A stretch of DNA of 64,000 nt, taken from Escherichia coli. GTDB lineage: Bacteria; Pseudomonadota; Gammaproteobacteria; Enterobacterales; Enterobacteriaceae. Shown here one piece after another: positions 39,001 to 45,000 of this stretch. The stretch lies in the NCBI RefSeq assembly GCF_046105845.1, contig NZ_CP151004.1; one strand, written 5' to 3'. The number at the start of each line of letters is the position of its first letter. Within the stretch, counting starts at the first letter, position 1. The position numbers were made by a program.

Positions 39001-42000
39001 AGCTCAACGACGTTGAAGATGTTCTGCCGGAGTCATTACCGCTCGGCATTCGCCAGCGGCTTTCGCTGGCGGTGGCGGTGATTCATCGCCCGGAGATGTT
39101 AATCCTCGATGAGCCTACTTCTGGTGTCGATCCGGTGGCGAGGGATATGTTCTGGCAGTTGATGGTCGATCTCTCGCGTCAGGACAAAGTGACTATCTTC
39201 ATCTCCACCCACTTTATGAACGAAGCGGAACGTTGCGACCGTATCTCACTGATGCACGCCGGAAAAGTGCTCGCCAGCGGTACACCGCAGGAGCTGGTTG
39301 AAAAACGCGGAGCCGCCAGTCTGGAAGAGGCATTTATCGCCTATTTGCAGGAGGCGGCAGGGCAGAGCAACGAAGCCGAAGCGCCGCCCGTGGTACACGA
39401 CGCCACCCACGCGCCGCGTCAGGGATTTAGTCTGCGCCGTCTGTTTAGCTACAGCCGTCGCGAAGCACTGGAACTGCGACGCGATCCGGTACGTTCGACG
39501 CTGGCGCTGATGGGAACGGTGATCCTGATGCTGATAATGGGTTACGGCATCAGTATGGATGTGGAAAACCTGCGCTTTGCGGTGCTCGACCGTGACCAGA
39601 CCGTCAGTAGCCAGGCGTGGACGCTCAATCTCTCCGGTTCCCGTTACTTTATCGAACAGCCGCCGCTCACCAGTTATGACGAGCTTGATCGTCGGATGCG
39701 TGCGGGCGATATCACGGTGGCGATTGAGATCCCTCCCAATTTCGGGCGCGATATCGCGCGTGGTACGCCTGTGGAACTCGGTGTCTGGATCGACGGTGCG
39801 ATGCCCAGTCGTGCCGAAACGGTAAAAGGTTACGTGCAGGCTATGCACCAGAGCTGGCTACAGGATGTGGCGAGCCGACAATCCACACCCTCCAGCCAAA
39901 GCGGGCTGATGAACATTGAGACGCGCTATCGCTATAACCCGGACGTAAAAAGCCTGCCAGCGATTGTTCCGGCGGTGATCCCGCTTCTGCTGATGATGAT
40001 CCCGTCAATGCTAAGCGCCCTTAGCGTGGTGCGGGAAAAAGAGTTGGGGTCGATTATCAACCTTTACGTGACTCCCACCACCCGTAGCGAATTTTTGCTT
40101 GGCAAACAGCTACCGTACATCGCGCTGGGGATGCTGAACTTTTTCCTGCTCTGCGGCCTGTCGGTTTTTGTGTTTGGCGTACCGCATAAAGGCAGTTTCC
40201 TGACGCTCACTCTGGCGGCGCTGCTGTATATCATCATCGCCACCGGAATGGGGCTGCTGATCTCCACCTTTATGAAAAGCCAGATTGCCGCCATTTTCGG
40301 AACGGCGATTATCACGTTGATCCCGGCGACACAGTTTTCCGGGATGATCGATCCGGTAGCTTCGCTGGAAGGTCCAGGACGTTGGATCGGCGAGGTTTAC
40401 CCGACCAGTCATTTTCTGACTATCGCCCGCGGGACGTTCTCGAAAGCGCTGGATCTGACTGATTTGTGGCAACTTTTTATCCCGCTGCTGATAGCCATAC
40501 CGCTGGTGATGGGCTTAAGCATCCTGCTGCTGAAAAAACAGGAGGGATGATGCGCCATTTACGCAATATTTTTAATCTGGGTATCAAAGAGTTGCGCAGT
40601 CTGCTCGGTGATAAAGCGATGCTGACATTGATTGTCTTCTCGTTTACGGTGTCGGTGTATTCGTCAGCGACCGTCACGCCAGGATCATTGAACCTCGCGC
40701 CGATCGCCATTGCCGATATGGATCAATCGCAGTTATCGAGCCGGATCGTTAACAGCTTCTATCGCCCGTGGTTTTTGCCACCGGAGATGATCACCGCCGA
40801 TGAGATGGATGCCGGACTGGACGCCGGACGCTATACCTTCGCGATAAATATTCCGCCTAATTTTCAGCGTGATGTCCTCGCCGGACGCCAGCCGGATATT
40901 CAGGTAAACGTCGATGCCACGCGCATGAGCCAGGCATTTACCGGCAATGGGTATATCCAGAATATTATCAACGGTGAAGTGAACAGCTTTGTCGCGCGCT
41001 ACCGTGATAACAGCGAACCGTTGGTATCGCTGGAAACCCGGATGCGCTTTAACCCGAACCTTGATCCCGCGTGGTTTGGCGGGGTGATGGCGATCATCAA
41101 CAACATTACCATGCTGGCGATTGTGTTGACCGGATCGGCACTGATCCGCGAGCGTGAACACGGCACGGTGGAACACTTACTGGTGATGCCGATAACGCCG
41201 TTTGAGATCATGATGGCGAAGGTCTGGTCGATGGGGCTGGTGGTGCTGGTGGTGTCGGGATTATCGCTGGTGCTGATGGTGAAAGGCGTGCTGGGCGTAC
41301 CGATTGAAGGCTCGATCCCGCTGTTTATGCTGGGCGTGGCGCTCAGTCTGTTTGCCACCACGTCAATCGGCATTTTTATGGGGACGATAGCGCGTTCAAT
41401 GCCGCAACTGGGGCTGCTGGTGATTCTGGTGCTGCTGCCGCTGCAAATGCTTTCCGGTGGATCCACGCCGCGCGAAAGTATGCCGCAGACGGTGCAGGAC
41501 ATTATGCTGACCATGCCGACGACACACTTTGTCAGCCTCGCGCAGGCCATTCTCTACCGTGGTGCCGGATTCGAAATCATCTGGCCGCAGTTCCTGACGC
41601 TGATGGCAATTGGCGGCGCGTTTTTCACCATCGCGCTGCTGCGATTCAGGAAGACGATTGGGACAATGGCGTAAGGAAGCGAAACTTGACTTCATATTGT
41701 GATGTCATACTATTGATGTCATAAAGTGAAGTCATAAGGACATGCCATGAGAACCCAGGTACAGGCTTTACGGAAGAAACAAAAAACACATTGGATCAAA
41801 TACTTAAATCTCCTGTTCCTCAAGGGATTAAGTGGTCTGATATAGAGTCACTGGTTAAAGCATTAGGCGGAGAAATTAAGGAAGGAAGAGGTTCGCGTTG
41901 TAAGTTCATACTAAATATGAGCGTTGCGTGTTTCCATCGGCCTCATCCGTCGCCAGATACCGATAAAGGCGCTGTAGAAAGCGTGCGTGACTGGTTACTA

Positions 42001-45000
42001 AGTATAGGGGTAAAACCGTGATCAAACTGAAGACGCCAAACTCTATGGAGATTGCCGGGCAACCTGCTGTTATCACTTACGTGCCAGAACTGAATGCATT
42101 TCGTGGCAAATTCCTGGGCTTGTCAGGTTATTGTGATTTTGTCTCTGACAGCATTCAGGGGCTGCAAAAAGAAGGGGAGCTTTCCCTGCGAGAGTATCTT
42201 GAGGATTGTAAAGCTGCGGGTATTGAGCCGTATGCGCGTACAGAAAAGATTAAGACTTTTACATTACGCTATCCAGAATCGCTGAGTGAACGCCTTACTA
42301 ATGCGGCTGCGCAGCAACAAGTCTCTGTAAATACTTATATTATTGAAACGCTAAATGAGCGTTTGAATCATTTATAACTTATAGCGGCCCAACAATTTCT
42401 GTTGCGCCGCTATATTTTTGTGGCTCTTAAGATGCCTTTCTAATCAACCGATGCCCCTCATTCATCATCAGGATTTTGCTATACACATCTTCCTCGACGG
42501 CGTTTTTTGCTGATGCCATCACTCGTGCCAGATTCGCCTCGTTGTGATTATTCACATACGCTTTGCCGACGGCGGTGATAAACGCTTTGCGCAGATCGCT
42601 GGCGATATTTACTTTAGCGACGTGATAATTAACAAAGCTGCGCAATATCTCCGGGGCGATACCGGAGCCGCCGTGAATAACCAACGGCACCGGACAGACT
42701 TCGGCAATGCGCTTCAGCAAGGGGATATCGATCCGCGGTATATCGTCCAGACCATGAACGTTACCAATAGAAACTGCCAGCATGTCGCAACCGGTGCGCT
42801 CGACAAAGGTCTTCACCTTTTCCGGTTCCGTTTTGCAATCGGCTTCGCTGACGTGATCATCTTCTTTGCCGAGAATCGCCCCCAGCTCCGCTTCAACCGG
42901 TACGCCATAGGATTTACAGAAATCGACAGCTTCCTGGGTGAAAGCGATATTCTCTTCAAAAGAGAATGCGGCACCGTCAATCATGACCGAGGTAAAGCCC
43001 GCGCGCACCGCCTGTTTAACATCCTCCTGAGTTTTCCCGTGATCCAGATGAAGACTGACCGGAACATCCATTTTATCGGCGTGACGTTTCACGATTTCAT
43101 AAATGTAATCGTATCCCGAGAGTTGTGCATTGGTGGGCGCAATCTGAATGAAGTTGGGTAATCCTGAACGCTCAATGGCGTTTAAAATTGAAATCGTCGT
43201 CTCCAGATTGGTGGTATTAAACGCGCCCGCTAATACCCGTTTTTCCTGAATGCGGTCGAGCAGTATCCGTCCATTAACTAATGGCATTTGAAAACCTCAT
43301 CTTTTAATATCAGTTAATTATTCAGCTTCACCGAAGCGGTCACGAAATAAGGCGGTGAGAGTTTGTATTGCCTCATTTTCATCATCGCCTTCGCAGCGTA
43401 TTTCCACCGTTTTACCGCCTTTTATTCCGGCGCGCATAATATTCATCATGCTGGTGGCATTAATATCATTACCCTCATAATGCAGCGTCACTTTACAGCT
43501 AAACTTTTTGGCGGCTTTTACCAGACAAGCCGCCGGACGTGCATGCAGGCCAGTACTGTTTCTGACCTCCACGGTTTTACTCAACATAGTGCTCCTCCCG
43601 ATGGTGTAATGGCATCACGCCTTCTTGCTGTAATTTCAACTGATACCAGCTTTTCCATTTGTGCTGATAACGCTGTAATTGATGGTATCTCGCCCGATTC
43701 GGTAACAAACGTTGGGCTATGGTAACTTGCGGCGGTGGAATATCCGGTGCGGCAGTTAATAATGCTCCGACAGAAACCGCCTCGTTAAATGCAATTGCCT
43801 CAACCGGACGCTGTAAAATATCCGCCTTTAATTGCAGCCAAAGGGGATTATGGGTTGCCGGGCCGATTACTTTTAACGCGCTGGTGCCAGGCACATTAAA
43901 ACAGGCGAAGCAGTTGGCAAATTCCATGGTTAATCCCAGTGAGACGCTGGCAATTAACATGTCAATATTTAACGTATCGCTAAGCCCATAAAATAATCCA
44001 CGGGTATGGCGATTTTTATAGGGCGAACCCGAACCGCGAAGATGTGGAATAAAGAGGGGAATGTCATCGAGCGACCAGTTCCCCGCCAGGTAATCCGCAT
44101 GTCCGCGAGTAAGTGATGCGGCGATCTCCTCATCGGTTAGCCGGAACGTGTTACGCAGCCACTCCAGAGCGAAACCGCCCACGGGCAGCGACGCAAACAG
44201 GGTGAACTGGTTTGCAAGCGAATAACAGCCGTTTGCCAGCTTGTCACGTTTGGCCTGTTCATCCAGCGTCGGTTGTGTATCCAGTTGCAGAATGCCTTCT
44301 GTGGTCCCCGTCGAGTTAAGGATATCGCCCGGCATCATCTGCAACGCCCGTGCACCCACCATATGGTCATGTCCGGCCAGCGTCACGCTGACCGGTTGCG
44401 AGAACCCAAGCGTTTTGCAGAGCGACTCGCTGACCCATCCGGCGTGTTCGCCTGGCTGCACCAATGGCGCAAATGCTGAACAGGGAACGTGTAACAACGC
44501 CGCCGCTTTCGCTGACCATTCGCCTTTGCGCACGTCCAGACACAGCGTGCGGCTGGCTAAGGTGATATCCGTGCGCTGTTCGCCGGTCAGCCGCCAGAGC
44601 AGTACTTCCGGCGCATGTAGCCAACGCAGGCCGCGGCGATTACGCAGTGGGTAATGTTCCAGCAACCAACGCATTTTGAAGGCAGAGTAATTGCTGTGCA
44701 GCGGTAACCCGCAAATGTCATAAAGTGCCGCACTGTCTGCCTCGCTAAGTGTAGCCAGATACTCTTCACCGCGACGGTCATACCAGGCCAGCATTGGCGT
44801 CAGGATCTCGCCATGCTCGTCAAGGAACACGCCTGACTCGCCAAAACTGGCAATGCTTATCCGCCTGACTGGCAGCGGCGAAGCGGCGTTCAGTTGCGCT
44901 ATCGCCTGGCGGACCTCCTGCCAGAGGGCGTCGATATCGAAATCGACATCGCCCTGTGGGGAGATCTGTTTTGCCGTCACGAATTTATGCGCGCCCAACG

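Follow-up and report, generated by a model that had tools for sequence, protein, structure and literature searches.

Class 4 hicAB systems, in which hicA lies upstream of a hicB gene whose product carries a C-terminal ribbon-helix-helix (RHH) domain (Gerdes 2024, mBio 15:e03293-23), are the closest described relatives of the locus reported here. In every HicA characterised, a single His is essential by mutagenesis (H24 in Burkholderia pseudomallei, H28 in Yersinia pestis, H36 in Streptococcus pneumoniae and H23 in Escherichia coli), and HicB proteins of the RHH type autorepress through palindromes at their own promoters (reviewed in PMC11594946). We have analysed a stretch of 64,000 nucleotides of E. 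coli DNA (assembly GCF_046105845.1, contig NZ_CP151004.1; hereafter, the window), in which a hicAB-like pair of open reading frames (ORFs) occupies positions 41791-42377. With a probability of roughly 80%, we read this locus as a chromosomal type II toxin–antitoxin operon of the hicAB type, located in the variable yhhJ–nikR region, whose toxin gene is a pseudogene in the window strain. As a toxin–antitoxin locus it is ordinary, decaying and already named by annotation pipelines, and the homology of the pair to HicA and HicB is genuine, well above what chance would give.

The pair consists of a 76-codon ORF starting with TTG (41791-42021) and a 119-codon ORF starting with GTG (42018-42377), both on the plus strand, as are all features below unless stated. 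The two overlap in a GTGA start/stop sequence at 42018-42021, which is ATGA in other strains. These coordinates agree with those of a first-pass annotation that had proposed a toxin-first hicAB pair with an RHH-like second protein, and that part of its reading was borne out. The 76-aa product matched Pfam HicA_toxin (PF07927) with an E-value of 2.2e-9, its residues 15-65 aligning to model positions 1-52 of 58, and the same match is precomputed for all homologues of the HicA-like protein. The 119-aa product matched PF05534 (E 2e-15, residues 60-112), and its C-terminus gave weak Pfam matches to Arc (0.022) and CopG (0.03), an Arc-like PHROG match (1.5e-6) and helices at residues 87-99 and 104-118. 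The PHROG collection further returned "toxin" for the HicA side (2e-26) and PHROG 9151, "HicB-like antitoxin," for HicB residues 8-118 (8.2e-13). The bicistronic hicA-hicB order, the RHH-type HicB and the overlapping genes are those of a Class 4 layout, and the 4-nt overlap is kept in distant homologues. Scans of both proteins against NCBIfam and PADLOC gave zero matches even at E≤1, so that no curated equivalog and no known defence system can be assigned to the locus. By megablast, the region 41600-42500 was present in full in 2,070 of 5,426 complete E. coli genomes. The DNA identity between the window and the orthologous yhhJ-nikR loci was about 99%, and the matched genomes carry the annotations "type II toxin-antitoxin system HicA family toxin" and "HicB family antitoxin."

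An intact, translatable hicA was not found in the window. A Shine-Dalgarno sequence (AAGGA, 41736-41740) stands 6 nt before an ATG at 41747-41749, and the corresponding ATG is the start assigned by the NCBI prokaryotic genome annotation pipeline (PGAP) to the intact 276-nt hicA of strains O169:H41, O157:H7 and SE11. The O169:H41 coding sequence specifies a protein of 91 aa that begins MRTQVQALRKKQKNTLDQIFKSPVPQG (WP_001260301.1). The window counterpart (41747-42021) measures 275 nt, and the DNA alignment of intact and frameshifted alleles placed the missing base in a run of six A residues (A6, 41781-41786), which has seven (A7) in the intact alleles. Because of this change, the ATG-initiated frame, which reads MRTQVQALRKKQKTHWIKYLNLLFLKGLSGLI, runs into a premature TAG stop (41843-41845) after 32 codons. 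The HicA domain lies in the -1 frame relative to the ATG, where TTG 41791 is the earliest possible start past an upstream stop, and the 76-codon ORF corresponds to the out-of-frame ancestral residues 16-91. When one A is added, the resulting 91-aa protein equals WP_001260301.1 apart from F20L. We infer that no full-length HicA is to be expected from the window allele; the TTG ORF is a stranded remainder of the ancestral 91-codon gene.

The first-pass annotation had taken the TTG ORF for the gene itself. A functional 76-aa toxin initiated at TTG 41791, with its activity altered or abolished by a Cys in place of the catalytic His, is in our view very unlikely. The ORF does exist, gives a significant HicA_toxin match by itself and keeps the alpha-beta-beta-beta-alpha core of the structural model in full; natural homologues can be as short as 84 aa, only 8 residues longer at the N-terminus, and for a lineage with a stop at codon 2 PGAP lists a corresponding product of 76 aa. 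However, no Shine-Dalgarno sequence was found at normal spacing before TTG 41791 (the preceding 20 nt are cggaagaaacaaaaaacaca), whereas the strong Shine-Dalgarno and ATG lie 44 nt upstream in another frame that one added base joins to the ORF. Moreover, all intact orthologues of the ORF, in E. coli and other Enterobacterales, have 91 aa, PGAP labels genes with the identical lesion as pseudogenes, and the Cys position, mostly Val or Ile in the subfamily, is not the equivalent of the His (see below). No evidence of a functional 76-aa toxin was thus obtained, and the ancestral, frameshifted gene starting at ATG 41747 replaces the ORF as the description of this hicA.

The A6 lesion is common to strains SMS-3-5, E22 and Res13-Sevr-PER07-33, in each of which PGAP labels the gene "frameshifted," and the exact 66-nt A6 allele of SMS-3-5 was found in 25 complete genomes. 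The 66-nt allele of the window was found in none of the 5,426 complete E. coli genomes, the closest match having 97% identity; it carries two extra substitutions, one of which produces F20L. Phe20 is invariant in a 38-sequence alignment and is kept in 119 of the 147 representative clusters over which all residue counts given here were taken. Since this Phe is so highly conserved, its substitution in the window fits relaxed constraint after inactivation. These data also bear on a possible sequencing or assembly artefact, in which the strain would truly carry A7 and an intact hicAB, with the homopolymer miscalled. The lesion alters the length of a homopolymer by one base and the allele is absent from the complete genomes, both of which would suit such an error, but no fewer than 25 independent complete genomes, SMS-3-5 included, have A6 alleles, and F20L agrees with a gene under relaxed constraint; we give the artefact very little probability.

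The nature of the A6 tract invites a further explanation by recoding, either leaky or programmed. If the Lys-tRNA in the P site slipped by -1 on CAA-AAA-A, or if transcription slipped there, low levels of the 91-aa HicA would result, and A6/A7 would serve to switch the dose or phase of the toxin. E. coli is prone to slip at runs of A and with tRNA-Lys, the frame of HicA is the appropriate one, the full ancestral HicA sequence would follow if one A were read again behind codon AAA (41783-41785), and a 1-nt and a 2-nt deletion in different strains both fall in the same A-rich stretch. Nevertheless, six A residues make a short run for slippage in transcription, the tract lies outside the X XXY YYZ register with no stimulatory structure identified, and most carriers, other genera included, have A7. 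In addition, hicA was inactivated by non-slippery lesions in other lineages (TAA, duplication and insertion sequence elements), which argues for plain decay. We regard recoding as extremely improbable, the least probable of the explanations weighed here, and retain the reading of the window hicA as a frameshifted pseudogene.

The fate of hicA across the species is in line with such decay. The gene was found at the yhhJ-nikR locus in 2,073 of the 5,426 complete genomes, and about 60% of the genomes are without hicAB altogether. We have broken down the alleles in 60 evenly spaced rows of the 2,073 hicA matches: 34 were full-length hicA with no indel, 22 corresponded to an allele of 92.6% identity, three were length-changing alleles and one was 5'-truncated. 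The allele counts obtained with 66-67-nt megablast queries, and the prevalence figures derived from them, are lower bounds because lineage single-nucleotide polymorphisms spread the matches over identity bands. The 92.6% allele, present in about 790 genomes including O104:H4, has a TAA at codon 2, right behind the ATG, and a 14-bp deletion that takes out one operator repeat (L003:529-880 compared with window 41675-42030). From this allele PGAP rescues, with a CTG start, a 76-aa "HicA family toxin" (WP_042014162.1). In its whole hicB and in the final third of its hicA the allele is identical to other lineages and the divergence is in the 5' region of hicA, which suggests a recombination breakpoint inside the gene.

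The length-changing and truncated cases comprised the 1-nt deletion in the A run, a deletion of 2 nt in that A-rich stretch, a 4-nt duplication with an internal stop, in which hicB is N-terminally shortened too, and an insertion of ISSen4 (IS3). In another strain, hicA is interrupted by IS1. The intact 91-aa hicA is kept in O157:H7 (WP_001259385.1), SE11 and O169:H41. Among the decayed alleles examined, hicA was hit in all and hicB only in the one where it is shortened, and six of the seven intact hicB genes examined encode exactly WP_000593555.1. E. coli hicA has been inactivated repeatedly and independently, with HicB almost unchanged. A toxin whose loss is tolerated, next to an antitoxin/repressor that is retained, should decay in this asymmetric way. 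Further truncated or frameshifted E. coli HicA proteins are found in the database (P0110, P0072, P0068, P0075, P0077, P0080 and P0103), an example being a 55-aa form that ends in EGRGGAVSSY and occurs in 588 contigs. These truncated forms indicate additional, independent lesions beyond the cases seen at the DNA level.

The first-pass annotation had also proposed that the catalytic His of this HicA was replaced by Cys. Half of this claim stands: no His is found at or beside the GS motif of the window HicA, and none directly follows the Gly-Ser turn. The Cys, however, is not the counterpart of the missing residue. In the numbering of the intact protein, codons 41890-41901 specify G49-S50-R51-C52 (R51 being R36 of the 76-aa ORF). 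The hhalign comparison of the subfamily with canonical HicAs (86.6% probability, E 4.4e-6) set these residues opposite G22-S23-H24-H25 of B. pseudomallei HicA, the crystallised proteins of which carry H24A within G-S-A-H-H. Independently, a profile-versus-PDB alignment placed GSR opposite GSH of 9svk_A, and in the MAFFT alignment H23 of E. coli K-12 shares a column with H24 of B. pseudomallei. From the three alignments, the counterpart of the catalytic His is R51, and the Cys stands one residue further on. The pairing of GSNH with GSRC was a string coincidence, with a one-residue offset according to hhalign and MAFFT.

The conservation of these positions leads to the same view. Position 51 is Arg in 142 of the 147 clusters and His in one, whereas position 52 is a variable hydrophobic residue (Val in 106, Ile in 27, Leu in 4 and Met in 3), Cys52 being limited to a subclade of the Enterobacterales. 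The hallmark of the subfamily is F-H-R-P-H-P, residues 63-68, encoded at 41932-41949 and placed just behind strand beta3, which is conserved at H64 (144/147), R65 (128), P66 (144), H67 (143) and P68 (135). In the hhalign alignment, P66-H67-P68 corresponded to canonical P39-H40-P41, and H64 and R65 were specific to the subfamily. Judged from these alignments, the window HicA is a homologue within a His-less sister subfamily, without the canonical HicA RNase His, and Cys52 reflects no recent loss and is unlikely to stand in for the His in catalysis, the His being absent subfamily-wide. The pairing of residues 51 and 64 in the beta2-beta3 hairpin, with its turn at 57-58, would make R51 and H64 cross-strand neighbours at the canonical active-site corner. 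According to the model, the invariant R51 should hence lie next to the subfamily-specific H64 at the site of the canonical His.

To estimate the extent of this GSR/FHRPHP subfamily, we have searched 1.84 billion representative proteins, clustered at 50% identity, with its profile; 2,477 clusters matched at E≤1e-3, of which 985 reached E≤1e-10. The modelled protein has the double-stranded RNA-binding domain-like alpha-beta-beta-beta-alpha fold of HicA, with an extra N-terminal helix besides, and the strictly conserved polar residues of the subfamily are R51, H64, R65, H67, K74 and R81. The hicA-hicB pair, with its 4-nt overlap, is kept around homologues of 57-61% identity in unrelated metagenome-assembled genomes (L007 and L012). 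It is also found on plasmids of Piscirickettsia, Sinorhizobium, Rhizobium and Deinococcus and in Ralstonia and Burkholderia phages. The literature retrieved for a His-less HicA, for the RefSeq accessions and for the Sinorhizobium meliloti, IncI2-plasmid and O157:H7 systems dealt with canonical His-bearing HicAs or other loci only, the characterised S. meliloti system being a different, His-bearing chromosomal pair.

Taken together, the sequence data suggest that intact subfamily members are HicB-neutralised toxins, most likely RNases in which His64 and His67 would work with Arg51 and Arg65. The alternative is that the subfamily is not toxic at all, but a catalytically dead HicA-fold partner of HicB with an RNA-binding or regulatory role, the loss of which has no addiction consequence. 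The subfamily-wide lack of the canonical catalytic His, the lack of any matching NCBIfam or PADLOC model and the loss of intact hicA with retention of hicB in about 40% or more of the E. coli carriers would all suit such a partner. On the other hand, R51, H64, R65, H67, K74 and R81 are strictly conserved; the toxin-first overlapping operon is maintained, with a HicB that has a toxin-masking fold; like addiction or defence modules, the pair is over-represented on plasmids and phages; and the asymmetric disruption, which affects hicA in every decayed allele examined, is as expected for a toxic first gene. We therefore consider a non-toxic subfamily unlikely and favour HicB-neutralised toxins. 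More tentatively, and with the odds somewhat against it, the subfamily may be a large sister lineage with a rebuilt active site, the His having shifted from the beta1-beta2 turn to the end of beta3 (His64, Arg65, His67). If so, there would be a large group of HicB-controlled toxins with a catalytic geometry, and possibly an RNA specificity or target, unlike those of every HicA studied, and the E. coli yhhJ-nikR locus, of which intact and broken alleles both occur in nature, would offer a ready test system.

Several points weigh against our reading of the locus as a decayed toxin–antitoxin operon and of its toxin. We found no experimental toxicity or RNase data in the literature for any member of the GSR subfamily, so that the label "toxin" rests on homology and gene context. 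The His essential in the characterised HicAs (PMC11594946) is absent, and the subfamily could be catalytically different or inert. The adjacency of R51 and H64 was deduced from the strand register in the secondary structure of the model and not from coordinates. The frequent loss of hicA could also mean simple dispensability. As for the pseudogene, the window sequence taken alone is compatible with a homopolymer sequencing error at A6, and a truncated product is conceivable, given the CTG-initiated 76-aa protein annotated by PGAP in the lineage with the stop at codon 2.

Some relatives of the subfamily show other architectures or names. The metagenome contig Ga0373634_0001302 (L010:3001-9159) encodes a protein of 2,052 aa (P0224) with a C-terminal GSR/FHRPH HicA-like domain (E 1.5e-23 against the family profile) and a weak match to filamentous-haemagglutinin repeats; it may be a polymorphic toxin tip. 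No HicB-like gene follows it, the next two genes encoding an RHH antitoxin and a YafQ/ParE-like toxin. We have not relied on this protein as evidence of toxin use, since the RHH/YafQ pair, and no HicB-like immunity gene, comes after it. A second metagenome protein, of 337 aa (P0194; L011:2-1015, on a 1.4-kb contig), has a C-terminal GSR-type HicA after an unrelated N-terminus of about 250 aa, and the 119-aa ORF downstream of this fusion is not HicB-like (16% identity). Subfamily proteins from Pectobacterium, Leminorella and E. coli (P0053, P0059, P0061 and P0079) bear the legacy name "hexulose-6-phosphate synthase," which is evidently a propagated misannotation.

The hicB gene of the window (42018-42377), recognised by its ORF, the profile matches and the model, is intact and encodes 119 aa from a GTG start (ATG in other strains). 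Its product shares 118 of 119 residues with WP_000593555.1. In the model, residues ~9-67 form the N-terminal partial RNase-H-like fold with which HicB proteins mask HicA, residues ~76-118 form the C-terminal RHH domain, and the best structural matches are HicB structures. The window HicB would be expected to neutralise any HicA of the GSR type.

The 72 nt that separate the stop codon of yhhJ (41674) from the hicA ATG contain a predicted sigma-70-like promoter (consensus scan, 9/12), with a -35 hexamer TTGACT (41686-41691), a 16-nt spacer and a -10 hexamer TACTAT (41708-41713). A repeat search in the same region revealed an imperfect inverted repeat at 41687-41734 (no strand assigned), TGACTTCATATTGTGATGTCA / TGATGTCATAAAGTGAAGTCA, whose arms (41687-41707 and 41714-41734) have 21 nt each, are 76% complementary and lie 6 nt apart. 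Its putative operator units, TGAnnTCA(TA), occur as direct repeats too, and overlap the -35 and -10 hexamers. Given the known autorepression of RHH-type HicB proteins through promoter palindromes, this inverted repeat is likely the HicB operator, and the window HicB presumably still represses its own promoter through the RHH domain. Downstream of hicB, RNA folding predicted an intrinsic terminator at 42380-42419, made of a hairpin (42380-42414) followed by UUUUU. The hairpin has a stability of -21 kcal/mol (z -5.06), which none of 200 shuffled sequences reached; a simple scan missed it because of its long, interrupted stem. The ancestral operon would thus have comprised one promoter with overlapping inverted TGAnnTCA repeats, a 91-codon hicA, a 119-codon hicB probably coupled to it in translation via the ATGA overlap, and a hairpin terminator.

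The surroundings of the pair are those of an E. coli-like chromosome. The upstream neighbours are rbbA (37815-40550) and yhhJ (ending at 41674), and downstream, on the minus strand, lies a class II aldolase/HPr/FGGY-kinase sugar cluster. The yhhJ-nikR interval that holds hicAB is variable (window 41675-45085 and beyond). In the window, O169:H41, SMS-3-5 and O157:H7, a sugar island separates hicAB from nikR, and elsewhere hicAB directly adjoins nikR. The island encodes a class II aldolase, HPr, an FGGY kinase, phosphotransferase system components IIC, IIB and IIA, a GntR regulator and a DUF3829 protein.

For the window itself these results mean little: the locus is a decaying copy of one already annotated, and the suggested replacement of His by Cys dissolves. 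The modest wider question is raised by a very large and widely mobile HicA subfamily that is without the essential His and conserves a different set of His and Arg residues. Within E. coli, the loss of hicA beside a near-invariant HicB provides a clean natural case of toxin loss with antitoxin retention, and annotations of a "76-aa HicA" with TTG or CTG starts call for caution.

Among the known systems, we have compared the locus with the Class 4 pairs B. pseudomallei HicAB (6G26), Y. pestis HicA3B3 (4P78) and S. pneumoniae HicBA (5YRZ). It shares with them the toxin-first order, the stop/start overlap, a HicB made of a partial RNase-H-like N-domain and an RHH domain, and the inverted repeats over the promoter; the Gly-Ser turn and the P-H-P motif of the toxins also align. 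Unlike them, the subfamily has an invariant Arg for the catalytic His, an additional helix of some 25-30 residues at the N-terminus, in which L16, F20, P23 and W30 are conserved, and His64 and Arg65 as near-invariant extras, and the toxin gene of the window is frameshifted. The subfamily is remote from the canonical HicAs: phmmer retrieved no PDB chain, and the family profile reached 9svk_A alone, with an E-value of 0.98. The E. coli K-12 HicA/HicB pair (6HPB), of Class 3, has both proteins in the same fold family and hicA first. However, the K-12 HicB is of the helix-turn-helix type and not RHH, and the K-12 HicA has 58 aa, with the catalytic H23 in GSNH, and is encoded at another chromosomal locus. 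The orthologues proper are the RefSeq 91-aa HicAs WP_001260301.1, WP_001259385.1 and WP_001259388.1, together with the HicB WP_000593555.1, from which the window pair differs by its A6 frameshift, as in SMS-3-5 and E22, and by a hicB that starts with GTG instead of ATG.

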